Positions 21,634 through 54,582 of a stretch of DNA of 64,000 nucleotides are shown one piece after another. Positions within the stretch are counted from its first letter, which is position 1; each line of letters opens with the position of its first letter. Made by a program: the position numbers and the translations under genes. Under the pieces are notes generated by a model, which did no database searches, was not told the origin of the DNA, and was given only the letters and a program-made list of their open reading frames with translations. Origin of the DNA: Bacilli bacterium (GTDB lineage Bacteria; Bacillota_I; Bacilli_A; RFN20; CAG-826); assembly GCA_024695235.1 (NCBI GenBank), contig JAILIP010000009.1:55647-119646 (forward strand), written 5' to 3'.

Positions 21634-21637
21634 AAAT

Positions 21638-22522: not shown

Positions 22523-22637
22523 TTGATATTAGCAAACAATGAGGATAGAAATGATTTTCTATTCTTTTTTTATGTCTTATAATAAGTTGTCAAATATTGG
22601 ACGAAATTAATTTGTAAATAATTAAACGGAGCAGAAT

Positions 22638-23522: not shown

Positions 23523-23538
23523 TTCAAGGGTGAATTAA

Positions 23539-25886: not shown

Positions 25887-27026
25887 ATGCAAAACTCAAA
25901 AGTTAAAAATGCTCTTCTTTATGGAGGAGTAAGCAAGGAAGAATACGAAAGAACAAAGCCTATTATCAATAGGACTAATCAAAAGATTTGGAAAATCTCA
26001 TCTGTTTTCTTTGAGATTCTCTTTTTAATTTTGTTCGTAGTTTCTTTAGTGACTCACCTTGCAATCGAAGACAAACCAGAGATATCAGAAATGTTCTTTG
26101 CCTACATGATTCCTTTTGGAGTCTTGTCATTTTACATGATAATCCTTGTCCTTGTTTTCCAAGGCGGATTCAAAAATAGTTCAAACGCATTACTTCCCCT
26201 TATTTATATTTCCATGGGAGTAATTCTAATATCGTTAGGTTCAATATCTATCTTTCTTGATGATGGTGTTAGTGGGGCAGCCTTTGTTGTCGCACTTATC
26301 ATTTTTCCGTTCTTTGTAACAGATAGACCTCTTAGATATATCATCTTTACCTTCTTAGCAGGAGTTATATATCTTTTACTTTCTTTATTTGTCAAAAAAG
26401 CATCTGTTGAATTAAAAATTAGAGATGTTATTTTAACAACGGCATCTATTCTTATTTCGATTTTCATCTCTATTGTTCTTAATATCACACGCGTTAGACG
26501 TAATGCGGATTTATACACACTTGAGTTACAAAGAGATACAGATGCCTTAACTTCTGTTAAAAACGTTAACGCTTATGACCGCAAAGTAGATGAACTTAAA
26601 GAAAAGATTCAAAACCATGCGGATGTTAGATTCGCAATCGTTATTTTTGATATCAACGATCTTAAATATATCAACGATAGTTATGGCCATCCTCAAGGTG
26701 ACCAACTCATCATTAGAACTGCAAAACTAATATGTGATGCTTTCAAGCATTCACCTGTCTATCGTATTGGTGGTGACGAGTTCGTCGCTATACTTGAAGG
26801 AATAGATTACTCAAATAGAGAAGTACTCATTCGTCAACTTCATGAAAGAATAGATCAAATTCACCAAGAAGCTAAAACAAGAAAAGATGATACATCAGTC
26901 GCCTTTGGTGTTGGAATATTTAATCCAAAGAACGACTTTGATTACATCACAGTGTTCTCACGTGCAGATGCAGAGATGTACGATAATAAGCGCATTGTGA
27001 AGGCCAGAAATGCTCAAAAGAAATAA
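25887..27026 (+). CDS. Membrane-bound diguanylate cyclase (GGDEF domain)
   Basis: The N-terminal half has approximately 5-6 TM segments. The C-terminal domain has FDINDLKYINDSYGHPQGD and an intact RIGGDEF active site. No RxxD I-site was seen upstream of GGDEF. Confidence 0.85.
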   Translation: MQNSKVKNALLYGGVSKEEYERTKPIINRTNQKIWKISSVFFEILFLILFVVSLVTHLAIEDKPEISEMFFAYMIPFGVLSFYMIILVLVFQGGFKNSSNALLPLIYISMGVILISLGSISIFLDDGVSGAAFVVALIIFPFFVTDRPLRYIIFTFLAGVIYLLLSLFVKKASVELKIRDVILTTASILISIFISIVLNITRVRRNADLYTLELQRDTDALTSVKNVNAYDRKVDELKEKIQNHADVRFAIVIFDINDLKYINDSYGHPQGDQLIIRTAKLICDAFKHSPVYRIGGDEFVAILEGIDYSNREVLIRQLHERIDQIHQEAKTRKDDTSVAFGVGIFNPKNDFDYITVFSRADAEMYDNKRIVKARNAQKK

Positions 27027-27195: not shown

Positions 27196-27882
27196 ATGAA
27201 AAAATCAAAAATCGTCGTCCCAGCCGTTGCATTATTAGCTCTTGGTTTGGCCGCTTCTACAACTGCTACAGTTGCATGGTTCCAAGCAACATCAGCAGCT
27301 ACATTAACAGACAAATCAGCACCAGCAACAGTTAATGTTCAATCTTCTACTTATAGTGCAGGTGCATATTATGTTAAAGCAACTGCATCATTCTCACCAA
27401 GCGCAGCTCTTGATTATACTGATAAGAATGGCTCCACTTGGGTAATCGTTAATGGTTATTTAAGAACAGCCGCAGTTAAAAGTGCAAAATACGCATCAGT
27501 TACAATTGCAGTAAACTTCTATTCGAACGAAGCTTGTACACAAGCTGCTACTGTATCCGAACTCGCTGAAATTGGCGCCGCATTTAGTGGTTTAACAGTT
27601 ACAATCAACCCAGATGCAAACACAAGATTAACAACCAGTGATCCAAGTAGCAATTTTGCTACAGCTTTCGCTTCTAAATTGGATGTTAGTGATACGGTCA
27701 ATGTTACCTTAAGCTCTGCCGGCGCAGCTTCATATTCGAATAATACCCATTATGTCTCAGTTAATGGCGATGGTACAAGTGAAGTTGCAGATGCTCACGT
27801 TGATGGCGAAGCCGCCGCATCAGAATACACTACAGATGGCGGACTTACATTAACAATCGCTTCTACAGCAAGATCTGCTTAA
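27196..27882 (+). CDS. Small secreted Ala/Ser/Thr-rich protein with a SipW-cognate-like signal peptide; candidate major fibre subunit
   Basis: 228 aa. The sequence runs MKKSK, then a hydrophobic helix, then TATVAWFQATS. The mature part is A/S/T/V-rich with beta-strand-like alternation. SD AGAAAGGA lies upstream. The gene is monocistronic, with its own promoter and a strong terminator. Confidence 0.6.
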   Translation: MKKSKIVVPAVALLALGLAASTTATVAWFQATSAATLTDKSAPATVNVQSSTYSAGAYYVKATASFSPSAALDYTDKNGSTWVIVNGYLRTAAVKSAKYASVTIAVNFYSNEACTQAATVSELAEIGAAFSGLTVTINPDANTRLTTSDPSSNFATAFASKLDVSDTVNVTLSSAGAASYSNNTHYVSVNGDGTSEVADAHVDGEAAASEYTTDGGLTLTIASTARSA

Positions 27883-28515: not shown

Positions 28516-28521
28516 TAAATT

Positions 28522-28645
28522 AGCAAAAAGCAAAACCACAGTGATGTGGCGACGCAAAACTAAAGGGTCTTAATTAAGATAGCCAGTTGCCTAGAGGTTC
28601 TTATTGAACGCCACTAAATGGATGATAGGTAGCTGGCTTTTAAAA
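28522..28645 (+). promoter_or_regulatory. c-di-GMP-I (GEMM-I)-like riboswitch 1, aptamer plus terminator-type expression platform
   Basis: GCAAAACCACA-GUGA-UGUGGCGACGCAAAACUAAAGGGUCUUAAUUAAGAUAGCCAGUUGCC (28530-28591) has these features: a GNRA-capped hairpin, a GACGCAAA junction, a second hairpin with a CUAAAG/GAUAGCC receptor-like loop, and an AGCCAG-UUGCC closing. The 3' half (28581-28593) can instead pair with 28626-28638 in a 13-bp stem followed by UUUU. Confidence 0.7.
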
Positions 28646-28700: not shown

Positions 28701-29480
28701 ATGGTCGATTTAAGCTTTATTAGGAAACGTAAAGCTAAGAAAATCGTTGCACTAGTTGGCGGGTTATGTGGCGCTGCAGTAGTAGTTGTATCTGCTGTTG
28801 CCCTTTTGGGCCAAAGAGCCGCACCTTTAACTGTCAAGCTTACTAACAGTGGTGCATCATTAGCATTATTCAAGTCTGAATTCGAAAACGATCGTAAATC
28901 ATTCTTACTCGCTACTGATAGCAAACCATATACTGAAATAAGCGAACCCGCTTTACGCGCATATGAGAGCGTACTAGACGTGGATGATTCAAAACCTCTC
29001 CTCACATCGGATGAGCAATCACTCCAATTCTATCAATACACTTTCTATCTCACGAATAGTGGCGCAAGTGCAGCTGATTACACATTCAGCTTAAACATTT
29101 CCTATCCACACAGATCCAGCTTTGACTTAGCTGATGTTTTGCGTGTGCGCTTTTATGAGAATGACGGAAACGATAAGTTGACTCATAACTACAAGACTTA
29201 TGCCAAACACTCGGATATATATAATGCCGAAACAGGTGAATATGAACCTGAACGCATTTCTGGTAGTCAAAGTGAATTTGCTGAGAAGTTTGAAAATGCA
29301 AACACAGTTCTCACTCAAAACGTATCCGCTTTCCCTGCAGGAGCAGTCACACGTTACACAGTTGTCGTGTGGATTGAAGGTGAAGACCCACAAAGTAAAG
29401 GTCCAGCTCCAGTGGACTCTGGTATTGCTCTAGGAGTAAACATTAGTGCCCATGAAGCAGAGGAGACACCTCTCGAATAA
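28701..29480 (+). CDS. N-terminally TM-anchored or secreted beta-rich protein, TasA/camelysin-like candidate (paralogue group, WIEGEDP motif)
   Basis: 259 aa. A basic N-terminus is followed by the TM helix IVALVGGLCGAAVVVVSAVALLG, but with no AW[FY] motif. LTNSGAS occurs twice, like the N-G-S strand motif recalled from TasA. The C-terminal VVVWIEGEDP resembles VFVEGWDEH and QYIEGWDRD in the next two ORFs. Confidence 0.45.
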   Translation: MVDLSFIRKRKAKKIVALVGGLCGAAVVVVSAVALLGQRAAPLTVKLTNSGASLALFKSEFENDRKSFLLATDSKPYTEISEPALRAYESVLDVDDSKPLLTSDEQSLQFYQYTFYLTNSGASAADYTFSLNISYPHRSSFDLADVLRVRFYENDGNDKLTHNYKTYAKHSDIYNAETGEYEPERISGSQSEFAEKFENANTVLTQNVSAFPAGAVTRYTVVVWIEGEDPQSKGPAPVDSGIALGVNISAHEAEETPLE

Positions 29481-30495
29481 ATTATCTGCAACGCTTGCAG
29501 CGTCTATATTAGCCGTAGCACTCACAGGAGTTACCTGTGGGACTTTTGCTTGGTTTACGTACGAGACGCGCGCAAAGATTGAAGAATTTCAAGGAATTAC
29601 TATTGGAGTCGGTGATTTGCAAGTGGGTATTCTGTCAGAAGCATATTTAGATAGAGCTGAAGAATATGGTTTGATTAGAGATGAAAGTAATCCTAACGAA
29701 ACAATTTACTGGTTTGATGGTCATACCATGGAGAATGAAACAATTAACTATGTTTTAAGTTCAAACGGTTATGCCACAAATGCTTTGCATCCAGTAACTT
29801 CGCGTAAATATGTGACTGGTGATCCTCTCACCCTATATGCTGCTCCTGATTTTAAACCCGAAGAAGATGCCAAAGCATCAAAAGATGGTAGAATATTCTT
29901 GCCGTTAGTTTTTAAATACGAAGACATCATTGATGATAGTTTGATTTCAAATGAAAACATATTCCTGTCTGATGTAAAACTTTCAACGCCAAGCAGCGAT
30001 AGTTACATCCACAGGGCAGTTCGTGTTCATACGGATAACAAAAATAACAATCGTCATTTGATTAACCCAACAACAAGCGAAGATGGTTCTACTGGTGTTG
30101 GTGGTGTCTTAGATTTAAATAAAGACGGTTTTTATGATACCGAGGTTACAGGTAGCGACCTCCGAGAACATGTATATGGGCAAGCCGAGTTCCAATACAA
30201 AACTGAAGTAGAAACAGAGGACACTTTTGTTCCTATTGAACAAAGAACAACATTCAAAGCCGGGCATCTAGCAGGTGCCTATTCACTTGAATCGTGTACT
30301 CCTGAAAAAGCAGAGTATGAAGGTTTTTATGGCTTTAGGAATAAACGCAAATGGGTTGCAACTACAAATCCAGAGACGAACAACTATGCTTATCTAGACC
30401 TATCTGTATTTGTTGAAGGATGGGATGAACACGTCATCGATTCTGAACGAGATTTACCATTTTCCATGGAGTTGAAATTTGAAGTAGTATTCTAA
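29446..30495 (+). CDS. Secreted protein with a SipW-cognate-like signal peptide (paralogue A, DxNxDG loop, EGWD motif)
   Basis: The GTG at 29446 lies 9 nt after AGGAG; an alternative ATG is at 29452. The N-terminus is ...LAVALTGVTCGTFAWFTYETRA. It has GGVLDLNKDGFYD and ends with FVEGWDEH...SMELKFEVVF. Confidence 0.55.
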   Translation: MPMKQRRHLSNKLSATLAASILAVALTGVTCGTFAWFTYETRAKIEEFQGITIGVGDLQVGILSEAYLDRAEEYGLIRDESNPNETIYWFDGHTMENETINYVLSSNGYATNALHPVTSRKYVTGDPLTLYAAPDFKPEEDAKASKDGRIFLPLVFKYEDIIDDSLISNENIFLSDVKLSTPSSDSYIHRAVRVHTDNKNNNRHLINPTTSEDGSTGVGGVLDLNKDGFYDTEVTGSDLREHVYGQAEFQYKTEVETEDTFVPIEQRTTFKAGHLAGAYSLESCTPEKAEYEGFYGFRNKRKWVATTNPETNNYAYLDLSVFVEGWDEHVIDSERDLPFSMELKFEVVF

Positions 30496-30496
30496 A

Positions 30497-31561
30497 ATGA
30501 ATAAAAAACGTTTAGCAGCATTTGGAATAGCAATAACGGGTGTGATGTTAGTAGCATCTGTGGCTTTTACTGTTGCTTGGTACAATGGTTCATCTAATTT
30601 AGCAGTCTATAACTTCGACATTTCTCTAGGTGACAAGAAACTTACTATTTCCACAGATAATGTGAATTTCAAAGAAAACTTAACTAGAGATGATGTCAAA
30701 GACGCTATCCCGGAAAAATACAGGCCTGTTAGCAGTGCCTTCTCCAATGAATGGATAAGTCAAAAAGCAACCCTTCCGCAATTTACATCTGGTTACAACT
30801 ACATACCAGAAAAGGTGAATATGACATCAATTGATGATGTCAACAACGCTGATGATGGTGTATTCAGAAAAGTGTTATATCTCAAAAGTGATTCTTATGC
30901 AAAAGTATCTTTAGATGCAGAGAAAACTTACATTAACGCAGATAATGATTCAAATGAAAGCATTTCAGGAAAACTCAAAAAGGTATATCCAAACTTAACC
31001 AAAGAACAAATTGTGGAACAACTTAACAAAATTGAGAATTCACTTCGCTTCTCAATCCTTGTCTTAAATGATGATGGAAAAGAAGTTGATGATAGTGAAT
31101 ATCAATACACGATCGTGGATCCACATAAAAATGGAACCACAAAATTAGGTGGCATCTTGGATGCAGATGGCGACGGTTATTACGATAACGTCAATGGTAA
31201 AGAAGTCATTTATGGCGAAGTTAAAAACGCAAATGATGGAACCATCTCATATAAGAATGCTGAAGCAAACGATGTAGGGGAATCAGAGAATTGTTTTGAT
31301 TCCAAACATAAAGCCGGCGTCCAAGCCTTAGATTTTGAATCTTCAGAATCAAAAGGTATGGAAATAGTCGAAGAACACTCTTTATCCTTAGAGGAACTTA
31401 GTCAGTTCACCTTTACACTTCAGGCTGATGTCTCTAAGAAGATAGTGTTGTCCCAATATATTGAGGGTTGGGATAGAGATAGTGATAATTACACAATGTT
31501 TTCCCGTTTTGTCACTAGTATTTGTTTCAAACTAGCAGACGGGGGGAATGGAGGCAACTAA
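30497..31561 (+). CDS. Secreted protein with a SipW-cognate-like signal peptide (paralogue B, DxDxDG loop, EGWD motif)
   Basis: MNKKRLAAFGIAITGVMLVASVAFTVAWYNGSS, with GGILDADGDGYYD and YIEGWDRDSDNY...ICFKLAD. Its length and motif order match the 29446 ORF. Confidence 0.55.
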   Translation: MNKKRLAAFGIAITGVMLVASVAFTVAWYNGSSNLAVYNFDISLGDKKLTISTDNVNFKENLTRDDVKDAIPEKYRPVSSAFSNEWISQKATLPQFTSGYNYIPEKVNMTSIDDVNNADDGVFRKVLYLKSDSYAKVSLDAEKTYINADNDSNESISGKLKKVYPNLTKEQIVEQLNKIENSLRFSILVLNDDGKEVDDSEYQYTIVDPHKNGTTKLGGILDADGDGYYDNVNGKEVIYGEVKNANDGTISYKNAEANDVGESENCFDSKHKAGVQALDFESSESKGMEIVEEHSLSLEELSQFTFTLQADVSKKIVLSQYIEGWDRDSDNYTMFSRFVTSICFKLADGGNGGN

Positions 31562-31564
31562 AAT

Positions 31565-33091: not shown

Positions 33092-33095
33092 TTAA

Positions 33096-35021
33096 ATGGC
33101 TAAACAATCATCAAGCAAATATCGAAAATTAGAAAGAAGCTATGCTTCAAAATCTAAAAAACTTTATTCATCAAATGATGGTAAAGAACTTTTAGATATC
33201 ATTTCTAGTGGTCGCAATAAGTATTTAAGATTAGATCGATTTGAATCATCCGCGATGGATATGACATGGATTAAACAAATCGAAGATTGTATTGATCCTT
33301 TAGGTGATATTGTTAATAACCCTAAAAAGACAATCCAAACTCTTACAGAGGTTGTACAAGTTGAGAAAGTCAAAAAGATTGGCATTGAAACAGTTCAACA
33401 TCTTTCAAGTCACACCCAATTTATTAAGACGATTGATGAAAATGGTGATGTCACTCCATCAAAACTTCTCAACGTCTACAATGATGACTTCTATGCGATT
33501 TATGAAAATAGATTCATTGCAACATTAATTCGCCATCTATTGATATTTGTTGAAAAACGTTATCAATTCGTTTTGCAAAACGCTACTCTATCTGACGTTG
33601 GAGTTCTTTATATGAAGAACCATACTGAACACGATGGAGCAGTCATCGATATTGAAACAAAAGTAAGATATTCACGTCCTGCTGAAGCAGTTGCTATTGA
33701 TAAACTAAAAGGATATCTCAAACGTATCGAAGATATTCGTAAATATCTAAAGTTCTATGCGAACACAGAATTTATGAAGATTCTCCGTCGTGAAAGAGAC
33801 GTCCGTAACCCAATCTTGCAGACAAACATTATTCGTAAGAACCCTAAGTATCATAAATGTTACTTACTCTGGCTATTTATCAATCGCTTTAAAGAAGCAG
33901 GAATTGAAGTTAAAGTCGAAGAAAACTATTCAGAACTTTCTGAAGAACAAATTCGTGAGATCAACGAAACTATGTGTTCATCGTTCCTCCTATTAAGAGG
34001 AAAAGACATGTCTCCTAGAACTGAAAAGTCCAAGAAGGCATATAAACCAGTCTTCATGAAGACATACGATGATGAAATCTATAAACCAATGGACTACAAA
34101 GGTCCAATTGAATATATCCGTGTTGATGATAAGTATCGCGAATACTCTGAATCTTTACATGTGGTTGAACCACACCCAACCAAGCAACGAAAAGCATACG
34201 ACAAAGAAAAATATGACGACAATAAAGCTCGTCGTGTTAAGAAAGCAGAGGTCGATGCTTTGCTAAAACGTAAAGAAAAAGAAAAAGCTATATATGAAGA
34301 GAACGAGAAACTTGCACTCGAACGCGAGATTGCGCGTGATAAATATGTAGAAGAAAAAGCAGAACAAGAAATCCGTGAAGAAGCTATTGCTAAAGTTGAA
34401 AAAGCACGTGAAAAACTTGTTGGTAAAGCTAATAAGGCTAAACCTGCTCCTAAGAAGAAAGTAGTAGAAAAGAAACAACCTAAGAAAGCTCCTGCCAAGA
34501 AGGCCGAACCTAAAAAGAAACCAGTCAAGAAGGCTGAGCCAAAGAAACAGCCTGTTGAAAAAGCAGAACCTAAGAAGGAAAAACCGGCTAAAAAAGTTGA
34601 GAAAAAAGTCGAAAAGAAGCCTGTTAAGAAGGTAGAGAAAAAGGTTGAACTAAAACCTGCTAAGAAGCCAGTTGTTCAAAAGAAAGAATCTAAACCAAAA
34701 GAGGCTCCTAAAAAAGCACCGGTAAAGAAGGAAACACCTAAAAAGGTGGCTAAACCAAAACCAGCGCCTAAAAAAGAAGAGCCAAAGAAGGTTGAAGAAC
34801 CAAAACCTAAGGTAGAAAAACCTGTTGAAGCTAAACCAGTTGAACCTGTCAAAGTGGTGGAACCTCCAAAAGAGGAAAAACCAGTTGAACAACCTAAACC
34901 GGTAGAAGCTCCGAAGGTTGAGCCAAAACCTGCTCCAAAGAAAGCTCCTAAACCAAAAGCGAAGAAAGAAAAACCTGAAACTTTCGCTAAGCTTTCATCA
35001 TTTAGAAGCAAGATTAAATAA
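33096..35021 (+). CDS. McrC/DUF2357-like partner protein lacking an obvious nuclease domain, with a coiled coil and a Lys/Pro-rich tail
   Basis: 641 aa with no TM segment. The central segment YAIYENRFIATLIRHLLIFVEKRY...NPKYHKCYLLWLFINRF resembles the ENRF-type core recalled from McrC-family partners of McrB-like NTPases. It is translationally coupled to the AAA+ gene (4-nt gap). The C-terminal approximately 230 aa are low complexity. Confidence 0.45.
   Translation: MAKQSSSKYRKLERSYASKSKKLYSSNDGKELLDIISSGRNKYLRLDRFESSAMDMTWIKQIEDCIDPLGDIVNNPKKTIQTLTEVVQVEKVKKIGIETVQHLSSHTQFIKTIDENGDVTPSKLLNVYNDDFYAIYENRFIATLIRHLLIFVEKRYQFVLQNATLSDVGVLYMKNHTEHDGAVIDIETKVRYSRPAEAVAIDKLKGYLKRIEDIRKYLKFYANTEFMKILRRERDVRNPILQTNIIRKNPKYHKCYLLWLFINRFKEAGIEVKVEENYSELSEEQIREINETMCSSFLLLRGKDMSPRTEKSKKAYKPVFMKTYDDEIYKPMDYKGPIEYIRVDDKYREYSESLHVVEPHPTKQRKAYDKEKYDDNKARRVKKAEVDALLKRKEKEKAIYEENEKLALEREIARDKYVEEKAEQEIREEAIAKVEKAREKLVGKANKAKPAPKKKVVEKKQPKKAPAKKAEPKKKPVKKAEPKKQPVEKAEPKKEKPAKKVEKKVEKKPVKKVEKKVELKPAKKPVVQKKESKPKEAPKKAPVKKETPKKVAKPKPAPKKEEPKKVEEPKPKVEKPVEAKPVEPVKVVEPPKEEKPVEQPKPVEAPKVEPKPAPKKAPKPKAKKEKPETFAKLSSFRSKIK
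34435..34980 (+). repeat. Lys/Pro/Glu/Val-rich low-complexity coding repeats (imperfect KKxEPKK / PKxxEKPVE units)
   Basis: The translated tail reads KPAPKKKVVEKKQPKKAPAKKAEPKKKPVKKAEPKKQPVEKAEPKKEKPAKKVEKKVEKKPVKKVEKKVELKPAKKP...EPKPKVEKPVEAKPVEPVKVVEPPKEEKPVEQPKPVEAPKVEPKPAPKKAPKPKAKK. The spurious antisense ORFs at 34094-35011 are by-products of this composition. Confidence 0.85.
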
Positions 35022-35026
35022 ATTAT

Positions 35027-35794
35027 ATGAGTGAGGAAAAATTAGAAGTAGTCGATAAACCAAAAAAAGACAAAAGCAAAGGTAAGAAGATTAAATCCAT
35101 TGTTGAATGGACCATTATTGGAATCTTCATTAGTGCTGCGTTAGTCTTGGTAGGTTTTAAGATTTACTCAAGCAAGACAAACAAGTCAATGTTTGGTTCA
35201 CAATATCCAGTCGTTCTTACTGACTCAATGGAACCAGACTACAAGGTTAAAGACGTATTGGTAGTAAAAGAAGTTGATCCCGCAGTACTTAAAGAAGGCG
35301 ATGATGTTACCTTCTATTGGGATTTAACTGGTAAAGGTGATGTTTATCCGATGACCCATAGGGTCAAGTCCATTGAATACTTCGCAAATGCCGAAGAAAA
35401 CGATGGATATCACTATACAATCATCACTCATGGTATCAATACCAAATCAAACCAATGTGGTAAGCCTGAAGGATGCGACATGACGTGGCAAACTCAAACA
35501 TTTCACGAAGATGCCCTCATTGGAAAAGTGGTTAGAAAAAGTTGGTTCTTGAAATTTGTTACTTCTGTTTGGGGATTGATTCTTTTAATTCTTCTGCCGT
35601 GTCTATACATCATGACTACAACTGTTGTAGATGCGTTCAAGAAGCTTGAAGAAGCCGATAAAGAAGCAGAACTTACTACTGTGGGCGTTGGAGAAAAACC
35701 AGATAATGATCCACTTGCAGGACTATCTGAAAATGATATTGAAGCCCTTAAGAAACAGATGCTTGATGAGATGTTAAATAAAGGAAAGAAATAG
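35027..35794 (+). CDS. SipW-like (archaeal/ER-type, S26B) signal peptidase I
   Basis: It has an N-terminal TM segment, the catalytic Ser box VVLTDSMEP, the His box PMTHRV, and a C-terminal TM segment (VWGLILLILLPCLYIMTTTVV). This is the same architecture as B. subtilis SipW as recalled (LSGSMEP/THRI), plus N- and C-terminal charged extensions. Confidence 0.75.
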   Translation: MSEEKLEVVDKPKKDKSKGKKIKSIVEWTIIGIFISAALVLVGFKIYSSKTNKSMFGSQYPVVLTDSMEPDYKVKDVLVVKEVDPAVLKEGDDVTFYWDLTGKGDVYPMTHRVKSIEYFANAEENDGYHYTIITHGINTKSNQCGKPEGCDMTWQTQTFHEDALIGKVVRKSWFLKFVTSVWGLILLILLPCLYIMTTTVVDAFKKLEEADKEAELTTVGVGEKPDNDPLAGLSENDIEALKKQMLDEMLNKGKK

Positions 35795-35795
35795 T

Positions 35796-37331
35796 ATGAA
35801 AAACAAATTGTATGCAAAACCTAAACAACTATTGGTGATTTCATCGATCGTTTTCGTGCTGGTTTTAGCAGCATCTGTTGTTTTATTCGTGCTTGGTTTC
35901 TTTACCGAACTCCCATTTATTGCATATATTTCCTTCGTGTTGTTACCACTCGCAGGTGCGTTCTTACTATTTTCAATTTTAAATTATGCGAAGAATGACA
36001 ATATGCTAAGAACACTTCAAATTGAAAACCAATATCAACTTGGCATCGGAAACTATTTCTTCAATTATCAAATGTTCTCTGAACGAGTAAAAAAATTACG
36101 TCGTAAACATGATCTTGATAAGACATATGTTATCGCATTCTCTGTATATAACATCCTCAGTAGTGGAACCATATCTTCATATCAAAGAAGATTGAATGGT
36201 TATATTGCATCATTTATTGGGGCAAAGGTTTTCCAAACCAAGATGGTAAACCCAAATGATATTGCTTTCTGTTTCCATAGAAACGTATTCATCGTGTATT
36301 CCTTTATGGATTTAGATAAGACTCGTGAATTAATCGAGATACTCCGTAAAGCAATATATGAAATCGTTAAAGAAAAGGAACTCAAAGTATTTGTTCAACC
36401 ACATTTTGGTGTTGCAGAAATTCTTCCTACAACAGACATTATCGTTGGAGTGGATAATGCCATCTTTGCTCGTAACGTAGATGAAAGAAACTTTGAAGAA
36501 TTGACATTCTACAAAGATGACTTCCGCGTCGAAACAAATAAAGATGAGATCGAAGAAATTAGAGATGCATTAAAGAACAATGAATTTGTTGTCTACTATC
36601 AACCAAAGTTTGATGTATCCAAAAAGAAATTTGTTGGCTTTGAAGCTCTTATTAGATGGAATTCACCTAGATATGGTTTACTCCTTCCGGGAAGATTTAT
36701 TGAAAAAGCTGAAATCGGTGGTCTAATCCATGAATTAGATATGTTCGTTCTTAGACAAGTTATTAAGGATTTAGAAAACCTTAAAGCAAGAAACATGAAT
36801 TTACTTCCTGTTTCTGTTAACTTCTCATTATATGAATTCTATTCCTCAGCATTTTTAACAGAATTAATTGAACTTATTGATAGATCTGCTTTAAAGCCAG
36901 AACTTATTGAAATTGAAATTACCGAAACTACAACCCAAGCCAATACATTCATGGCTACATCGATTCTTAATCGTCTCCGTAATCACGGACTCAAGATTTT
37001 AATGGATGATTTTGGAAGTGGATTCTCAAATCTTCTCCAACTTAATTCATTACCATTTGATGCAGTTAAGATTGATAAGTGCCTTATTGATGGAGTTGCC
37101 TCTGATCCTAAGACAAAAGAAATCGTTAAACTTGTTATTGGTTTATGCAAAGCCAATCAACTAGGCATTGTTGCAGAAGGTGTTGACTCCAAAGAAAAAG
37201 TCGATGTCTTAACCAAAATGGGTTGTGATGTCATCCAAGGATTCTACTATTCTGAACCTCTATCTCTATTAGAGGCCCTAGAATTTTTAGATGACAATCC
37301 GTTCACCAAGAAAGGAGGAAGTAAGAAATGA
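35796..37331 (+). CDS. Membrane-anchored c-di-GMP phosphodiesterase (degenerate GGDEF plus intact EAL)
   Basis: It has two N-terminal TM segments. The GGDEF-like domain has HRNVF in place of GGDEF. The EAL domain has all hallmark motifs: FEALIRW, VNFS, EIEITE, DDFGSGFS, KIDK, AEGVD and QGFYYS. Confidence 0.8.
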   Translation: MKNKLYAKPKQLLVISSIVFVLVLAASVVLFVLGFFTELPFIAYISFVLLPLAGAFLLFSILNYAKNDNMLRTLQIENQYQLGIGNYFFNYQMFSERVKKLRRKHDLDKTYVIAFSVYNILSSGTISSYQRRLNGYIASFIGAKVFQTKMVNPNDIAFCFHRNVFIVYSFMDLDKTRELIEILRKAIYEIVKEKELKVFVQPHFGVAEILPTTDIIVGVDNAIFARNVDERNFEELTFYKDDFRVETNKDEIEEIRDALKNNEFVVYYQPKFDVSKKKFVGFEALIRWNSPRYGLLLPGRFIEKAEIGGLIHELDMFVLRQVIKDLENLKARNMNLLPVSVNFSLYEFYSSAFLTELIELIDRSALKPELIEIEITETTTQANTFMATSILNRLRNHGLKILMDDFGSGFSNLLQLNSLPFDAVKIDKCLIDGVASDPKTKEIVKLVIGLCKANQLGIVAEGVDSKEKVDVLTKMGCDVIQGFYYSEPLSLLEALEFLDDNPFTKKGGSKK

Positions 37332-38077
37332 TTTTAATCATTGGAACAAATCATGATGATGTTCTTTACTATGAAAGCATTCTTTCATCTCCTAAAGAAG
37401 AAGTTATCCTAGATAAGTATCACGCACTCGTTGGAACAATCGCTTCTCAAGAAACAATGGTCCTTCAAGATGTGTATACATCATACTTATCAGGAATACT
37501 TGCAACATATATCATCAATCATTACTTCATTTCTTTAATCATCAATGTCGGTAGATGTGAAGCTATCTCTGATTCACTTAAAGTAGGGGATATAGTGCTC
37601 TCTGAATCTATTGTCTTTGGTGATGTCGATCAAATTGCCTCTTTGAAAGGTACGACCCTCGGTCAAATTCCTGGATATCCTCGTTCATTTGCGGTTCCAA
37701 ATAACCTAACTAGGAACTTATATACTTCTTTAGAGAAGATTGTTGATAAACGATTTGTTTTAGCAACATTTGTTTCCTCCTCGTTCTTTAGACAAAGCAA
37801 AGAAAGAGTAGGAGAAATTTCTAAGGATGAATATATTAACTCTCTAAATCAAAATATTGTCCTCGATGGAGAAAGTGCTGGCATCGCTTTAGTGAGTCAA
37901 CTCACACATGTTCCATTCATTGCTGTTAAAGTGGTGGAAGCTAAGGCTGGCAATTATACTTCCTTAGAAGATTACTTACTTGTTTTAGATGAGTATGCAC
38001 CTCTAGGCAAAGCTGTATCAAACTTCATTGGTGAGATTTCTCGTACTGATATTTTAAGAATAGGAGGTAAGTTCTAA
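37328..38077 (+). CDS. Divergent MTA/SAH-nucleosidase-fold (PNP_UDP_1) protein
   Basis: It is collinear with Pfs/MtnN (MILIIGTNHDDV, IINVG..., LKVGDIVLSE, GQIPGYP, LDGESAG, VPFIAVK), but several canonical residues are substituted: EME becomes DGE and RAISD becomes KVVEA. Confidence 0.55.
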   Translation: MILIIGTNHDDVLYYESILSSPKEEVILDKYHALVGTIASQETMVLQDVYTSYLSGILATYIINHYFISLIINVGRCEAISDSLKVGDIVLSESIVFGDVDQIASLKGTTLGQIPGYPRSFAVPNNLTRNLYTSLEKIVDKRFVLATFVSSSFFRQSKERVGEISKDEYINSLNQNIVLDGESAGIALVSQLTHVPFIAVKVVEAKAGNYTSLEDYLLVLDEYAPLGKAVSNFIGEISRTDILRIGGKF

Positions 38078-41000
38078 TGGCAAAAAAAGAAGTTATGTCT
38101 TTAAAGTCCTATTCTAAAAAGGCTTTACTAACCATTATCCTTTTATTCTTAATGGTGCTTATTCTTACCGGAGGAGTAATTGCTTCTATTTATCTAGTTT
38201 TAAACCAATTACTTCAAATTCTTATTTGTTCATTCCTAGTTTTAGGAATTCTTATTGCTCTTTTCTACATCGTCTTTATTGGTAAACGCTTATATGATCT
38301 TTTCTATAAGCAAGGAATTGAGATTACAACTCATAATATTCAAGCGTTATCAAATTTTGATAAGAGTTTTGACTATTATGAAGAAGATGAATATAAAGAA
38401 CTTAAAGATTTAAATACAACATTTAAAGATATTGCAAAAAACGTTGGGGGAAGAACAATTATCTCTCAAGGCCTTGCTCATCAAGAAGTGCCATTAAAGT
38501 ATGACGATGAGGCAAAACATTTTGTGAATGAATCATCTCTTATCAAGAATATGCATTCACTTATAATTGCTTCTGAATCATATCGAAATGCATTGATTGA
38601 TATTTCATATAACTTAGGCAAAGAGACAATTGAAGAAAAAAGTGTTTCTCGTATTTATAATACGATTAAAGAAAACCTTTCATATGAACATGTTCTAATT
38701 TCTTTTAAAGAAAACAAACAAGGATTTGTTGTATATGTTCCGGCATTTGATTCAATCAACCAATTAAAAGAAGAATTAGAATATATCATTAAAGATATTT
38801 CTCTAGTGAAAAAAGGCGGAACAACAAAACGTGCTGTAGTTGCGCACGTAAGTGTTGCTATTTATCCATATTCATCAATTGATAATCTTGTTAAAGACTT
38901 ATCTAAAGCTAGAAAAGAAAAGAAAGTTCTTAATATTTATATTCCAGAAAGAACATTTGAATTTAATAACAAATTGCTATTCTCTTCGATGAATATCAAT
39001 AACACAACTAAACTCATTGAAGATGTCTCATCAATTGTTCCAGATCCAAAACTATATGCATCTAATTTAACAAGAATTAAAAAGTGCATTGATAACACAT
39101 CTAACTATTATGGCTTTGATGCCGCAGGATATCTTGGATATGACAAAGATAACGAAAAATATATAAATGTATACTCATTCACATCTAAAGACGAAGTCAT
39201 ATTCAAAGATTCAGTCGATATATCTAAGAAATTTATCCAAACTCTTAACGCTGTTAAAGATAGCGATTCAAGTTACTACTTCTCAAGCAGAAAACATATT
39301 AATAACAGACTAGCGTTATATGTCGATCAATACCGCATCCGTTCAGGTTTATTTTACATCCTATCGCGTGATGATAAACCATTCGGTGTGTTATATTTCC
39401 TTAATCGTCATAAAGACTTATCCTTTGACGCATATATGAAGGAATCTTTGATTACTTCATGTCATGTCTTAGGTAGCGTTTTAGAAAAGATGGACGCAAG
39501 AAGAAATGTTAATGTTGCAGATAAGCGTCTCAGTGAGATATTAAAAATCTCTGGAATGACCCTATATTCGGTCAATAAGGCCAATTATGAGATTGTTAGG
39601 TATTCTCAATCACTTTTGCGTTTATTCCCGTCATTTGACCCTTCTATGCCTTGTTATAAGGCTCTATATGGTTTAAATAAACCTTGTAAGAACTGTCCAC
39701 TTAAGCAAAAACGTCATATGATAAGTGAAATTAATTCACATAAATATGAAGTATATCCTGTCTTTGCTAACAAGTATGATCCAACTGCTCACTTATTAAT
39801 TCAACCTCAAAAAGGTGATGATGTATCTGAAAGATTTGATGATGAAACATTACTTTCAAGCTTTGCTTCATTTAGAACGGATTTATCTAACCAATTGCTT
39901 TCTAACGTAAGTGGCAAGATTCTCCTACTTAAAGTCAAGAACATCAAAGATGTTATATCCTCAGTTAAAAACGGTGGATATGTCACACTTATCAAAGAGT
40001 TCTCTGATAGAGTATTAACTCATTATGTAGACTTTGCTGACGTATATCAATTTAATAGTTCAACGCTTGCGTTGATTCTTCATGATAAGAGCGATGAAGA
40101 CATCGTTTCTATCTGCCAAGAAATCTGTGATATTGTTCAATCAGAAAAGGTTGATGATACACATCTATCATTTATGTATTTAGTTAAGAACTACTCCGCT
40201 AATGATACAAATGACGCACTTCAAAAAACATTGCTTGATGCGCTTGATAAATACAAAGATGAAAATGAAGATGAAATCGTCTTTGTTGATACTGAATATA
40301 AGCGTAGTGCATCTTTAGACGGATACCTTCTTGAACAACTATTGTCCTCCTTTGGAGAAAAGACATATGATATGGAATTCACTCCATTATTATCAAACAA
40401 CACCCGTCTTGTTTATGGAGTTGAAATCACTCCTAATATTGTCGATAGAAATGTAAATAAACGATTAGATATTTCTAAGGCAATAGAAGTGGCACATAAT
40501 AAGGGCTTTGGAGACATCTATAGTGATGGAATGTTATTGTATTTAGATGATCTAATTAGTAGATATACGTATACCTTCTTTATGTCCACAGATATATCAT
40601 GTATGTCACTTAAAGTTGATCATAATTTCATCAATCAAGATCGCTTTATAGAGCATCTAAAAGAGATATATTCTAAGCATCAATTGCCTAAAGGATTTAT
40701 TGCCTTTGAGGTGAGTGAAGATGATGTCTACGAACACGAAAAAGAATACAAAGAAATCGTTAGAAAAGCTGCTCAAATTGGTGTTAATTTCATAGTCTAT
40801 GACTATGAAGGTAACAAATATACAGTTGCTTCATTAGGCGAACTTGGCTTTAAAGAAATTAAGTTCTCTAAGAAGATTTTGTCCTCTATTAATGATCGAG
40901 ATTCATATAACCAAACAACCTATATGTGGCTTGAAGCTATCAAGCAACAAATGAAGGTCAATTTCACTGGTGTTGAATCTCGTAAATCATCAGAAGCTAT

Positions 41001-41124
41001 CGTCTTTGAAGGTTACGATTGCGGAGTTCAAGGTGACTATTACTTCAAGCCAATGGATGAAGTAAAAGCCTTTGAAGTTATTAGAACTCGTAACATGAAA
41101 GACAAAGATAATCTTGATAACTAA
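38077..41124 (+). CDS. Large membrane-anchored protein with degenerate GGDEF and degenerate EAL domains (candidate c-di-GMP receptor)
   Basis: 1015 aa with two closely spaced N-terminal TM segments and a Cys motif PCYKALYGLNKPCKNCP. The GGDEF-like segment ILLLKVKNIKDV...VYQFNSSTLALILHD has no GGDEF. The EAL-like C-terminus has substituted motifs: GVEITPN for EAL, FEVSED, VYDYEGN for DDFGTG, IKFSK for KIDK, TGVES and QGDYYFKP. Confidence 0.55.
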   Translation: MAKKEVMSLKSYSKKALLTIILLFLMVLILTGGVIASIYLVLNQLLQILICSFLVLGILIALFYIVFIGKRLYDLFYKQGIEITTHNIQALSNFDKSFDYYEEDEYKELKDLNTTFKDIAKNVGGRTIISQGLAHQEVPLKYDDEAKHFVNESSLIKNMHSLIIASESYRNALIDISYNLGKETIEEKSVSRIYNTIKENLSYEHVLISFKENKQGFVVYVPAFDSINQLKEELEYIIKDISLVKKGGTTKRAVVAHVSVAIYPYSSIDNLVKDLSKARKEKKVLNIYIPERTFEFNNKLLFSSMNINNTTKLIEDVSSIVPDPKLYASNLTRIKKCIDNTSNYYGFDAAGYLGYDKDNEKYINVYSFTSKDEVIFKDSVDISKKFIQTLNAVKDSDSSYYFSSRKHINNRLALYVDQYRIRSGLFYILSRDDKPFGVLYFLNRHKDLSFDAYMKESLITSCHVLGSVLEKMDARRNVNVADKRLSEILKISGMTLYSVNKANYEIVRYSQSLLRLFPSFDPSMPCYKALYGLNKPCKNCPLKQKRHMISEINSHKYEVYPVFANKYDPTAHLLIQPQKGDDVSERFDDETLLSSFASFRTDLSNQLLSNVSGKILLLKVKNIKDVISSVKNGGYVTLIKEFSDRVLTHYVDFADVYQFNSSTLALILHDKSDEDIVSICQEICDIVQSEKVDDTHLSFMYLVKNYSANDTNDALQKTLLDALDKYKDENEDEIVFVDTEYKRSASLDGYLLEQLLSSFGEKTYDMEFTPLLSNNTRLVYGVEITPNIVDRNVNKRLDISKAIEVAHNKGFGDIYSDGMLLYLDDLISRYTYTFFMSTDISCMSLKVDHNFINQDRFIEHLKEIYSKHQLPKGFIAFEVSEDDVYEHEKEYKEIVRKAAQIGVNFIVYDYEGNKYTVASLGELGFKEIKFSKKILSSINDRDSYNQTTYMWLEAIKQQMKVNFTGVESRKSSEAIVFEGYDCGVQGDYYFKPMDEVKAFEVIRTRNMKDKDNLDN

Positions 41125-41144
41125 TTTAAATGATTATCTGAATG

Positions 41145-41167
41145 AGTAGGCTTATTGCCTACTTTTT
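41145..41167 (+). terminator. Intrinsic terminator ending operon 1
   Basis: AGTAGGC-ttatt-GCCTACT followed by TTTTT. Confidence 0.8.
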
Positions 41168-41279
41168 CGTATAAAGTTAATAATTTATCAAAAAGATATT
41201 TATTTAATTAAATTTCATAAATTAAATATATCAAAGATATATTTGAATGTGCATACATACTTATACGAGCAATATATAC

Positions 41280-41308
41280 TTGTATTGTGTGCGCATAGTA
41301 TATAAAAT
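41280..41308 (+). promoter_or_regulatory. Promoter TTGTAT-N17-TAAAAT driving riboswitch 2 and operon 2
   Basis: -35 at 41280-41285 and -10 at 41303-41308. The predicted start site lies approximately 10 nt upstream of the aptamer. Confidence 0.45.
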
Positions 41309-41324
41309 ATACTTGAACTTGATA

Positions 41325-41412
41325 AAGGCAAAACTACAGTGATGTAGTGACGCAAAGCTAAAGGGTCTTGATTAAGATAGCCAGTTGCCAATAATGGTGA
41401 CTGGCTTTTAAA
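41325..41412 (+). promoter_or_regulatory. c-di-GMP-I (GEMM-I)-like riboswitch 2, aptamer plus terminator-type expression platform
   Basis: GGCAAAACUACA-GUGA-UGUAGUGACGCAAAGCUAAAGGGUCUUGAUUAAGAUAGCCAGUUGCC (41327-41389). GGCAA/UUGCC closes P1. 57 of 63 positions are identical to copy 1, with one compensatory C-G to U-A change in the GNRA hairpin. 41379-41390 can alternatively pair with 41395-41406 (12 bp, loop AUAA) followed by UUUU. Confidence 0.75.
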
Positions 41413-41437
41413 AATATCAGTCAAGAAAGGTAAGCTA

Positions 41438-44400
41438 ATGAATCGTTTCCAAAAAAGAATAATGATCATCGCTGCAGCAATCTGCAATGTTTCGCTTACC
41501 CTTACAGCAGCTGGTGTTGCAACATATGCTTGGTTTAAAGCTAAAGCAAATCTTGTAGCCGTTTCAAATAATCTCTCAATCAGTGTTGCCGACCCTGATG
41601 AAAAATTTGAATATGACATTTATAAATATGATGATAACCTTAAGGCTGGCAAAAAATTTACTGATCCTAGTGATTTTACCTTGCCTGATTATGATACATA
41701 CATCACCGAGAAAAACGTTTACGCGAACTGCATCATACGCGCTGAAGTCACAGTCCCCTCATTAAATACATCCGATGAGTATTTCACCATTGATGTCACA
41801 AGACTTGCTTCAAACTACTTCATTACAAGTACAACAAAGGTTGATAAAAAGACATCTAATGTTATTCAATTAAAATCTGCTGTCTATTCTTTCTTAGAAA
41901 GTGGCGAAACCGATTTTACAGAAAACACTAATATGATTGGACACGGAGATATTGACGAAACCTCTCCTGCGACAATCTATTCAACTGTCAGTGACTATTT
42001 TGCCACTAAACAAACTCCAACAACATTCGTTCCTATTAGATATGATGATAATGGTAATCCTATTGTTAATCGTGGAGATGACGAGAACAAAAGAACCATT
42101 ACCCTTATTCCAGACTTACCTACAGGTTATACAATCACAAAGGTAATTATCTATCTCGAATGTTCTTATCACGAAGATTTAGTTGATAAGTATGTTGAGT
42201 CTAATTCTACAGATTCTGCTGCAACAAAATATGCACTTCAAGGCGATGTTTCGTCAATTGTTTTTTCACATAAAGAAAAAGTTGCAAAAACATCACAAGC
42301 AACTGGTAAATACATTAAGGTAGAATCTACTGCTGCTTTAGCTAACGGTCAGTATTTGCACGCGTACGAGACGGATGAATCCACAGGCGCCGCAAAACTT
42401 ATGAAGGGTAGTTTAGCAACCAGTGATAAAGCTGCTACCAACCCATCCGGAATCTTTGTAGCAGATAACATTAGAGATGCAACGATAAACTCACTACCAT
42501 CCAACGAGCCAAAATCAATTGACACCACCGACGCCATTGATAGTGATGCATTTGCTTACACTAAAAAGAGTGGTGAAAATTCTATAAATACATTTAAGTC
42601 AAAAGCTGGTTACTACATTGGTAACGATACCCAATCTAATGGTATTGCGACTAACGATGACTATGCCAATGGTTACAAACACCAAATTACTTTCAGTGGA
42701 GATCATGCAAACGTTGATGCTTATGGTACTGGCTCAAACAACATGAGATTAGGATACTATACATCTGGAAATGGCAGATTCTATTATCAAAAGGATTCTG
42801 GAAAACAAACAGACCTGTTTAGATATACCGAAAACGTTGCAGAAATGCCCACATTAACCGGTATAGAAATTACAACTGCAACAACTGCCACCTCATTCTA
42901 CACATCACAAAAATTTGCTATTACTAATTTAGTTGTAACAGCCACCTATTCCAATGACTCATCTGCAATAGTTACGAAGTCATGTACTTTCACTTCAGAT
43001 ACCGATCCAGCTACACTAGTGCCTGGCACTACTACTTTGAGCACTGTGACCCAATCAAAGAATATTTATGTCAGTTATTCTGAAGGCGGAGTAACGATTA
43101 ATGGTGAAGGTGTAGCTGCTTTAACATACACAATTAGTGTTGCTCAAGATGAACTAAATTCAATTTCTGCAACTGCTCCAACCAAATCTTATTATTTTGT
43201 CAATGAAGAGTTTTCATCAGCAGGCATGACTGTTACCGCTCATTATAAATCTGGCAATCCTGTCAACATTGAATTAAATAATCCTAATTTAACAATTACT
43301 GCTCCTAGCATGTCATCAGTTAGTGATCCATCTGTTAATGTCTCATATACTGATGGAGTTACAAAATCTACTACTGTTACAATTCACATTGTCGCAAGGT
43401 ACTTAAGCATCAATAAGAACAGTGCATCTGTTGCAGAGGGCGGAGATGTAACAATCACTGTAGATCATAATCAGGATGTCACAATCACAAATACTCCTGG
43501 AACTGGAACTGTTTCCTTAAATCCTAGTTCAATTGAGTACACAGGAACAAATAAGGCTAGAACAACCACTGATGTAACGGTTCATGGCGAGACAGCTGGC
43601 ACCGTAACTCTCACATTTTCTTCCAGTGGATGTTCACCTGTTTCATGCAATATTACTGTTACCGCTACACCTGCTGATGTGATTACTATGACCGCAGATG
43701 AAGTCATCACCGATTCGGGTTATAAGGCATATGCTACAAACATTTCAAAGGATTACAATGGTACAGGAAGTGAATCAAAAGGATGGCTTGTAACATTTGG
43801 CGGAAATAACTACACATTTGGTACAAATAATAATGCTACCAATTTTGATAATTGTAATTTGTCTTCGTATGACAAGTATGCTGTCAGTACAGTGGCAACT
43901 ACTTCAGAAACCGCTGCTGCGTTTGCAAATACGAGCGTGATGCACAAGATTAGGAATATCTCGTTCACATGTACTGGTGGTACAAATTTGAACACAACAA
44001 CCGCATATATAATCTATTCTGCTGATAATATTACTTTTTCAAAACCAACATTAGCTTCCGGTTCTACATCACAAGGTACTACTGTGACTTCTGGAACAAC
44101 GTATACCTTTAAATTTAATTCGGCATTGGCCGGATATTTTGCGATTGTATTTAAATCAAGTCTTTCTAGCGTTGGCAACTGGAAGATAGAGGGCCTATCT
44201 GTAACTTACAACCCTAAAGCTCTTGATCATATCGCTATCACTGGAGATGTTTCGAATAAATCTTACACAAGTGGACAATCGTTAAATATGTCAGGTTTAG
44301 TTGTTACAGCGTATTACACAGATAATACAAACGAAGTTGTAACAGGAAGTGCAACATTAACCTCTTCTGTAGATCCATTAACCACTGGTACTACATCAGT

Positions 44401-51401: not shown

Positions 51402-51538
51402 AAGTCTTGTATCAAACTACTATCGTATTTTATATATTCGTTATCTAAAATGCAAGGTGTTAGGGCATGTAATTTCTAATTACTGACCCTAAAGCATATA
51501 CGTGCTTATACATAAAAAGTGTATTATTATATTTAAGT

Positions 51539-54567: not shown

Positions 54568-54582
54568 CTAGTGGAGGTTTAT

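Follow-up and report, generated by a model that had tools for sequence, protein, structure and literature searches.

When both halves of a GGDEF-EAL tandem have lost their catalytic motifs, does the protein that carries them become a receptor for cyclic diguanosine monophosphate (c-di-GMP), or something else? The question is raised by a gene for a 1015-amino-acid (aa) membrane protein in a stretch of 64,000 nucleotides (nt), hereafter the window, from a Bacilli bacterium (assembly GCA_024695235.1, contig JAILIP010000009.1, positions 55,647 to 119,646 of the forward strand). An earlier note on this DNA, made from the sequence alone, had taken the protein for a candidate c-di-GMP receptor comparable to LapD, encoded alongside a peptidase and giant adhesins. 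We propose instead, with a probability of roughly 0.55, that it is a pseudoenzyme, namely a catalytically dead, membrane-tethered sensor or scaffold. The family to which it belongs is uncharacterised, and we found no description of the family, or of the gene cassette in which it resides, in the searchable literature.

A word-indexed homologue search recovered only 12 relatives, and an exhaustive profile search about 100 full-length clusters at 50% identity, all of them about 1015 aa in length; the family alignment used here comprises 93 sequences, with identity falling to 14%. That the C-terminal part of the protein follows the GGDEF-EAL order, as the earlier note had it, is borne out by several lines of evidence. 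The Pfam EAL model (PF00563) matches aa 755-992 with 56.4 bits against a gathering cut-off of 31.3 (E 3.6e-15); this is the only Pfam domain found in the protein, and it is likewise matched by all 47 family members tested. The NCBIfam models for DosP and CsrD align with aa 607-993 and aa 836-992, respectively. A PDB search with the protein as a single sequence gave marginal matches only. With the family profile, aa 570-1006 match the structures of GGDEF-EAL tandems (MorA, E 1e-46; DosP, 3e-45; LapD, 1e-32; FimX, 5e-28), and aa 612-741 match those of stand-alone diguanylate cyclases (E 7e-9). Foldseek searches with an AlphaFold2 (AF2) model of the protein (mean predicted local distance difference test score 77.7) recovered the PAS-GGDEF-EAL unit of RbdA (E 6e-21), along with DosP, MorA and LapD, over a range of 1e-17 to 6e-21. 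The Pfam GGDEF model (PF00990) has no match in the protein even at E 10 and matches 15 of the 47 family members individually; the GG(D/E)EF signature is absent from the C-terminal GGDEF domain, the fold and homology of which are present by family profile and Foldseek. The region is thus related to GGDEF and EAL domains and takes the form of a degenerate tandem of about 430 aa.

We mapped its residues by aligning to one family hidden Markov model (HMM) both this protein and the canonical EAL protein (511 aa) encoded in its operon. In the EAL domain, T769 stands at the Gln of the QP motif, E783-I-T785-P-N787 at E-x-L-x-R, K846 at the metal-binding Asn, Y908-D909-Y-E-G-N at DDFGTG, K929-F-S931 at KxD and T964 at the general-base Glu of EGVE. 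The last was assigned to the first Glu of that motif by its spacing, 36 residues past the catalytic Lys, following the residue numbers of RocR and BlrP1. The ExxE pair (E878, E881), the second Glu of EGVE (E967) and the QG dipeptide (Q985-G986) are kept. Hence, the catalytic set of an active phosphodiesterase is incomplete, with N787, K846, Y908, S931 and T964 replacing Arg, Asn, Asp, Asp and Glu. The substitutions in EAL, DDFGTG and KIDK that the earlier note had listed, as well as the retained QG, hold up in the HMM alignment, which adds the losses of the metal-binding Asn and of the Gln of QP. Its statement that every catalytic motif is substituted goes too far, since E783, E878, E881, D909, K929, E967 and Q985 remain. 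The GGDEF signature is likewise replaced, though not by QFNSS as proposed: the family consensus at this point reads iYrYn..TlAllL, because of which we place NSSTL (aa 659-663), two residues later, at the signature. The RxxD I-site is not conserved, by family consensus, in this domain or in a second, N-terminal GGDEF-like domain considered below, and on this ground a receptor function through a GGDEF I-site was rejected.

Taken together, these losses show a protein that should be able neither to make nor to hydrolyse c-di-GMP. That it works as a c-di-GMP phosphodiesterase, or as one under GTP regulation such as PdeA or CC3396, is extremely improbable in our view. The Pfam EAL match does lie above threshold, and E783, the ExxE pair, K929 and E967 would suit such an enzyme; but T964, K846, Y908 and S931 occupy the positions of the general base, the Asn, the first Asp and the KxD Asp, the GGDEF domain is devoid of any GTP-binding signature, and a fully canonical EAL enzyme is already encoded two genes upstream.

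Catalytic loss extends across the family: only 11 of the 93 members have the general-base Glu, and N, R or Q takes the place of the second Asp of DDFGTG. The nine sites lining the pocket for the substrate (Gln, Glu, Leu, Arg, Asn, Glu, Asp, Lys, Gln) are kept in most members. In 63 of the 93 the pocket is intact (at least eight of the nine residues), and pairwise identity among these is 0.97 at the nine sites against 0.31 across the EAL domain, the signature expected of a binding-competent, non-hydrolysing pocket. As most other family members keep such a pocket, they probably bind c-di-GMP. A second group of 24 members has an eroded pocket (at most four of nine), with a pairwise identity of 0.20 at the nine sites against 0.23 across the domain. 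The protein under study falls in this eroded group: it keeps four of the nine residues, with Arg changed to Asn, Asn to Lys, Asp to Tyr, Gln to Thr and Leu to Thr. Within its own clade of seven members the corresponding identities are 0.50 and 0.62, and in 11% of randomly drawn column sets the variability equals or exceeds that of the pocket sites, i.e. the latter do not differ from random. Its close relatives show N, K, R or E at the Arg site and Y, N, E, S or R at the Asp site, and the Leu site varies too. The pocket in this clade therefore appears to be under no specific constraint, evolving no slower than the rest of the domain. Every domain of the protein is under strong purifying selection, the ratio of nonsynonymous to synonymous substitution rates (dN/dS) against a 93%-identical orthologue being 0.06 overall and 0.03-0.12 per domain, with 0.08 for the EAL domain; the overall value led us to reject a decaying pseudogene. 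The family looks ancestrally like an inactive receptor in the style of LapD and FimX, from which the lineage of this protein would have become blind to c-di-GMP while working through other surfaces.

These patterns bear directly on the proposal that the protein itself is a LapD/FimX-type receptor, whose degenerate EAL domain binds c-di-GMP and relays its occupancy to an output such as SipW processing or adhesin display. The closeness of its GGDEF-EAL fold to LapD and FimX, the c-di-GMP control of its locus by riboswitches, the persistence of the pocket residues E783, E878, K929 and Q985, and a family consensus with the classic signature of a receptor, namely a full binding pocket that lacks the general base, all speak for such a role. 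We nonetheless consider it unlikely, given that T769, T785, N787, K846 and Y908 take the places of Gln, Leu, Arg, Asn and Asp. The Arg after the EAL motif, lost here to N787, lies at the centre of the c-di-GMP site of LapD, in which c-di-GMP binding is linked to EAL dimerisation (PMC3032553). Moreover, the variation of close relatives at the Arg and Asp sites argues for a pocket without specific constraint, and the protein has no periplasmic or HAMP output module.

Like LapD, an inner-membrane receptor of Pseudomonas fluorescens and Vibrio cholerae, the protein has two transmembrane (TM) helices as a membrane anchor, GGDEF and EAL domains that are both catalytically dead, a matching fold (3pjw, E 1.6e-17 in Foldseek), and a protease and giant adhesin encoded with it. 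Unlike LapD, it has a TM loop of about 3 residues in place of the periplasmic LapG-binding domain, no Pfam match to the HAMP domain that LapD possesses, N787 at the position of the pocket-centre Arg, and about 450 extra sensor residues (GGDEF-like, GAF and PAS). In place of a LapG-type Cys protease, its cassette encodes as sole protease a homologue of SipW-type signal peptidases, and the adhesins carry putative SipW-like signals in contrast to the type I secretion system (T1SS)/RTX substrates of the LapD system. Because the periplasmic/HAMP module, the pocket Arg and the LapG/LapA partners are all absent, the protein is not a member of the LapD family. What survives of the LapD-like receptor of the earlier note is a degenerate tandem in a c-di-GMP-linked locus; the pocket is eroded, and with no periplasmic domain, HAMP domain or LapG-type protease the analogy of output fails.

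FimX (REC-PAS-GGDEF-EAL, from P. aeruginosa and Xanthomonas, acting on type IV pili) shares with the protein the order of PAS, degenerate GGDEF and degenerate EAL domains, together with fold and profile matches (4j40, 3hv9), but it is soluble and its EAL pocket binds c-di-GMP, whereas the present protein is membrane-bound with an eroded pocket. RbdA, DosP and MorA provide the best structural (440-700 aligned columns) and profile matches; yet these are active enzymes with intact motifs, whereas the present protein has lost the GGDEF signature, the general base and both the Asn and the Asp. Structurally, it is closest to the PAS-GGDEF-EAL enzymes and to LapD/FimX. In function, we see its closest analogy in regulators that are blind to c-di-GMP. 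CsrD, YdiV/STM1344 and BluF/YcgF are degenerate EAL or GGDEF-EAL proteins that act by macromolecular interactions independent of c-di-GMP. YdiV interacts with FlhD (PMC3510510). The analogy stops at function: the protein differs from CsrD, YdiV and BluF in architecture, partners and taxa, has no homology to them beyond the shared domains, and its own partners are putative.

If the tandem is dead, what might it relay? The region of about 500 aa preceding it, which the earlier note had left unassigned, is resolved by the structure model, Foldseek and profile-profile comparison (hhalign) into degenerate GGDEF-like, GAF and PAS domains. The overall order is TM hairpin, degenerate GGDEF-like, GAF, PAS with a Cys triad (Cys3-PAS), degenerate GGDEF and degenerate EAL (Table 1). 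The two TM helices lie in one hydrophobic stretch (aa 11-76) and are joined in the AF2 model by a loop of about 3 residues, close to the 5 or so estimated previously; there is therefore no extracytoplasmic domain, as was also foreseen, and the anchor is a membrane hairpin that faces the cytoplasm. In a Foldseek search with the model of aa 96-595, phytochrome sensory modules (PAS-GAF-PHY) matched over the full length and single GAF domains at TMt 0.63-0.73, the GAF domain of Lcd1 with cAMP being among the fold matches. With the model of the protein, the PAS-GGDEF-EAL units of RbdA and DosP aligned over 568-700 columns. The search with aa 96-595 confirmed the GAF and PAS-type folds and gave no independent confirmation of the N-terminal GGDEF-like fold. 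In hhalign, aa 135-295 align end to end with the C-terminal GGDEF region over 131 columns (probability 67%, E 5e-5; controls at most 2.5%), which gives moderate support for a second, still more degenerate cyclase-fold domain.

The PAS-like domain holds the Cys triad C526-X10-C537-X2-C540 (nt 39652-39696), i.e. a CX10CX2C motif and not the CX9CX2C first reported, and the triad with its following Pro is 99% conserved in the 93 sequences. A profile of this region matched nothing among PDB sequences or in Pfam; we identify it as PAS because of its fold and because Pfam PAS matches cover the same motif in other proteins. Thus, among metagenomic proteins, the motif C-[YH]-K-x8-P-C-x2-C-P lies within Pfam PAS_4/PAS_9 matches of sigma-54 activators, of histidine kinases and of active GGDEF/EAL proteins. 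Loci with the triad inside PAS domains come from unrelated metagenomes (L029, L114, L066, L101, L046, L011, L080). By its motif, Cys3-PAS is predicted to be a reusable sensor module and may constitute a general, uncharacterised metal- or redox-sensing PAS subtype. A three-Cys PAS domain of the sigma-54 activator OrpR binds a redox-sensitive 4Fe-4S cluster (PMC8359166). As in OrpR, the PAS domain belongs to an anaerobe and its conserved Cys number exactly three, and the motif also occurs in sigma-54 activators; compared by motif, however, the spacings differ (CX10CX2C against CX8CX3C in OrpR). The likeness to OrpR is hence a lead, not membership of the OrpR- or NreB-like PAS domains that bind Fe-S clusters.

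Two riboswitches tie the locus to c-di-GMP, as do an EAL enzyme with intact motifs and a GGDEF cyclase encoded nearby. One aptamer is situated upstream of the first operon gene and the other between the gene under study and those of the giant proteins. In both, the last nucleotides of the aptamer (14 nt in the first, with a fold z of -3.7; 15 nt in the second, with a fold z of -6.7) are also the 5' arm of the terminator hairpin, so that ligand binding should prevent termination, and both are predicted to be ON switches. The second aptamer scores best, by a narrow margin, with the GGC-variant model, and its subclass is ambiguous. The position of the first is kept in the related loci L001 and L003 and that of the second in L001, L003, L006 and L007, with scores of 55-68; relatives with aptamers at both positions encode proteins 37-63% identical to the one studied here. 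The c-di-GMP link to the adhesin genes is thus real, but by these predictions it is mediated by RNA.

Table 1. Features of the locus in window positions; residue numbers refer to the 1015-aa protein.
Feature	Position	Strand	Evidence or remark
Membrane (multi-TM) GGDEF protein, canonical RIGGDEF	25887..27026	+	Pfam GGDEF 91.3 bits
T-[VFY]-A-W-[FY] proteins	27196-27882 (228 aa), 29446-30495, 30497-31561, 41438-45220, 45232-49122		
First c-di-GMP-I aptamer (28519-28594) and terminator hairpin (28581-28638) with U-tract	28519..28642	+	Rfam RF01051, 57.7 bits; gathering 35
Three small secreted/membrane proteins (259, 349, 354 aa)	28701..31561	+	Two with T-x-A-W-F/Y signal motif
McrB-like AAA+ protein, N-terminal TM segment	31565-33091	+	AAA_5; PADLOC PDC-M26A E 6.6e-40; E. 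coli McrB E 8e-4
DUF2357 protein	33096-35021	+	DUF2357 E 1.2e-6
SipW/archaeal-type signal peptidase I homologue	35027..35794	+	TIGR02228 44 bits; SipW model 42.9 bits
Membrane EAL phosphodiesterase, 511 aa	35796..37331	+	Pfam EAL 224.6 bits
MTA/SAH-nucleosidase-like (PNP_UDP_1) protein, translationally coupled to the 1015-aa protein	37328..38077	+	Pfam E 7.7e-11; PDB MTAN E 1e-15
1015-aa membrane protein	38077..41124	+	ATG start
TM hairpin, aa 11-76	38107..38304	+	Kyte-Doolittle scan; AF2 helices 9-40 and 44-92
N-terminal degenerate GGDEF-like domain (nucleotidyl-cyclase fold), aa 135-295	38479..38961	+	hhalign, moderate support; secondary-structure order of model fits fold
GAF domain, aa 320-475	39034..39501	+	Foldseek of aa 96-595 model
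PAS-like domain with Cys triad, aa 485-585	39529..39831	+	Two-strand, three-helix, three-strand order in model; Foldseek
C-terminal degenerate GGDEF domain, aa 586-748	39832..40320	+	Family profile against diguanylate cyclase structures
Degenerate EAL domain, aa 750-1005	40324..41091	+	Pfam EAL; residue map
Intrinsic terminator-like hairpin just 3' of the 1015-aa protein gene, ending first operon	41144..41164	+	
Second c-di-GMP-I-class aptamer (41318-41393) and terminator hairpin (41379-41406) with UUUU	41318..41410	+	Rfam RF03167, 60.7 bits; gathering 59
Two giant secreted proteins, 1260 aa (Big_3) and 1296 aa	41438..49122	+	T-x-A-W-F/Y motif in each; syntenic

The gene is the last of nine in an operon (28701-41124) with gaps of at most 5 nt or overlaps. 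Their order is three small secreted/membrane proteins, AAA+, DUF2357, SipW-type peptidase, EAL phosphodiesterase, MTA/SAH-nucleosidase (MTAN)-like protein and the 1015-aa protein, whose start overlaps the stop of the MTAN-like gene (TAATG) and is preceded at 8 nt by an AGGAGG ribosome-binding site. The phosphodiesterase has all canonical motifs (EALIR, N, EITE, DDFGSG, KID, EGVD and QG), and the RIGGDEF protein, 1.5 kb upstream of the first riboswitch, is a likely local, and possibly dedicated, c-di-GMP source for the cassette. The signal peptidase homologue matches the two NCBIfam equivalog models at E of about 1e-11 in all 5 orthologues, with bit scores of 44 and 43 that lie under the curated cut-offs of 51.85 and 190; its S67 (SM-E-P box) and H111 (T-H-R) are invariant. 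The peptidase that was said to be encoded alongside the protein thus belongs to the same tightly packed operon and conserved cassette, though its gene is not adjacent; the giant neighbours, whose genes start 313 nt past that of the protein, are by synteny part of this cassette as well. A minus-strand ORF of 134 aa (41215-41619) overlaps the second riboswitch and the start of the giant-protein gene and is probably spurious.

The DUF2357 protein has a Lys/Pro/Glu-rich tail of about 270 aa. Pairs of McrB-like AAA+ and DUF2357 proteins are usual in restriction or defence systems, so that one is unexpected inside a cassette for secretion and adhesins. PADLOC had no match for the 1015-aa protein; a defence-system reading of it was dropped, the only PADLOC match being that of the AAA+ neighbour to a candidate defence family.

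N-terminal signal sequences are present in the giant proteins. A T-[VFY]-A-W-[FY] motif directly follows the N-terminal hydrophobic segment of five proteins encoded in the window; it has no other occurrence in any six-frame ORF of the window and is kept in orthologues. One of the five, of 228 aa, is encoded outside the riboswitch-controlled unit. The motif resembles the SipW-cognate signal of TasA and camelysin, a hydrophobic segment followed by a G-T-x-A-x-F-like motif, but no model confirmed this resemblance. NCBIfam and Pfam gave no match for putative SipW-cognate signals and revealed no homology to TasA or camelysin in the small secreted proteins, which have no family match; the homologues of the 354-aa protein are all unnamed. 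We take the motif for a likely SipW-type cleavage signal.

Precedents exist for the individual features of this arrangement. In Firmicutes, adhesin genes are known under riboswitch control (B. thuringiensis Bc2-cap, PMC4933901), and SipW-dependent matrix fibres are encoded by the tapA-sipW-tasA and sipW-bsaA operons (PMC7395162). The cassette resembles the former in having a c-di-GMP-I riboswitch directly upstream of large surface-protein genes and the latter in encoding a SipW-type peptidase with its presumed substrates. Unlike either, it joins both features in one unit and adds a phosphodiesterase, an MTAN-like protein, the McrB-like AAA+/DUF2357 pair and the dead GGDEF-EAL sensor; unlike those of tapA-sipW-tasA, its substrates have no detectable TasA or camelysin homology.

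How firmly the protein is associated with these neighbours can be gauged from related loci. A GTDB scan with the family alignment yielded 2 loci only; searching metagenomes with a degenerate DNA pattern of the Cys motif brought in about 65 more loci of the family. Among loci with sufficient upstream sequence, 37 of 49 have the MTAN-like gene directly upstream of that of the family member, 25 of 33 have the EAL phosphodiesterase gene in synteny and 23 of 29 the SipW-like gene; further upstream come the AAA+/DUF2357 pair and the small proteins. Where the MTAN-like, EAL and SipW-like genes are missing, the family member still adjoins genes for proteins with the T-x-A-W-F/Y motif. The flanks of the cassette differ, comprising a phage integrase in L130 (1-256), a ParE toxin in L001 (1-282) and an LPG synthase in L003 (21254-22774). 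The cassette, of about 20 kb, would therefore be a discrete, possibly mobile unit, and this suggests that it moves as a whole. In the window it lies inside a cell-surface polysaccharide region, with rmlBCDA-like dTDP-rhamnose genes and glycosyltransferases (19964-25813) on one flank and a sugar transferase and Wzy-like ligase (50742-52978) on the other; an 897-aa Big_3 protein (54571-57264) is encoded outside it.

The recurrent coupling to the MTAN-like protein raises a further alternative, in which the remodelled EAL pocket, a degenerate GGDEF domain or the GAF domain binds some other nucleotide or nucleoside, maybe tied to the reaction of that partner. The low dN/dS of the EAL domain despite the loss of its canonical pocket is compatible with this, as are the tight linkage to a protein of the PNP/MTAN fold, the family of which conserves an acidic HDD, D180 and E204, and the cAMP-bound Lcd1 GAF domain among the fold matches. 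GAF domains commonly bind cyclic nucleotides. On the other side, the sequence names no candidate ligand, the pocket positions vary among close relatives, which speaks against a newly fixed specificity, and the catalytic Asp of MTAN aligns with an Ala in the partner. We hold this alternative to be improbable, more so than a LapD/FimX-type receptor.

We therefore return to the catalytically dead sensor or scaffold, for which we posit the following course of events. High c-di-GMP would stabilise the aptamers, so that no terminator forms and both transcription units are on. The protein would sit in the membrane beside the other TM-anchored proteins of the cassette, where its GAF and Cys3-PAS domains would read a cytoplasmic cue. 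This cue would most likely be the redox or metal status, sensed by way of an Fe-S cluster or Zn bound to the Cys triad. Its dead GGDEF-EAL module would then relay this cue by protein-protein contacts rather than by binding c-di-GMP. The first candidate partner would be the translationally coupled MTAN-like protein; the second, through EAL-EAL heterodimerisation, would be the co-encoded phosphodiesterase, and such pairing would tune the local breakdown of c-di-GMP and thereby feed back on both riboswitches. This regulation of the phosphodiesterase, taken on its own, appears doubtful to us.

Several observations weigh against the proposal as a whole or in part. The partners are putative, being assigned from gene neighbourhood, and where the upstream DNA suffices, about one locus in four is without adjacent MTAN-like and EAL genes, so that the family can do without these partners. 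In its Cys spacing (X10, X2) the protein departs from OrpR (X8, X3), and the triad could be a purely structural Zn site. With E783, E878, E881, D909, K929, E967 and Q985 remaining, weak or altered nucleotide binding is possible. The N-terminal GGDEF-like domain is only moderately supported, at an hhalign probability of 67%.

Extending the proposal further, the protein might be the sensory gatekeeper of an undescribed Gram-positive surface-fibre and adhesin system. The riboswitches would license transcription; the SipW-type peptidase, the membrane McrB-like AAA+/DUF2357 pair and the subunits with the T-x-A-W-F/Y signal would build or export the structure; and redox status, via an Fe-S-loaded Cys3-PAS, would control the co-encoded phosphodiesterase or MTAN-like enzyme. 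In this full form we think it unlikely; were it true, a single membrane complex would unite the sensing of redox state with the turnover of c-di-GMP.

The more novel elements of our findings are the whole cassette and the Cys3-PAS module. The cassette appears to be widespread, with occurrences in rumen, gut and digester metagenomes, and brings together two predicted ON riboswitches, giant secreted proteins, a SipW-type peptidase, a McrB-like ATPase and a phosphodiesterase whose activity would act back on its own inducer. It may thus represent a new route to c-di-GMP-controlled surface display in anaerobic Firmicutes. Cys3-PAS, being common to sigma-54 activators and histidine kinases, is a candidate for a general redox or metal sensor. 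Finally, motif loss alone is usually taken as sufficient to file a degenerate GGDEF-EAL protein under "probable c-di-GMP receptors". The present family, in which about two-thirds of the members keep a non-catalytic pocket and about a quarter have lost it with their domains under purifying selection, is a natural comparison and a test case for a second-messenger receptor turning into a messenger-blind scaffold, and it argues against inferring receptor function from degeneracy alone.

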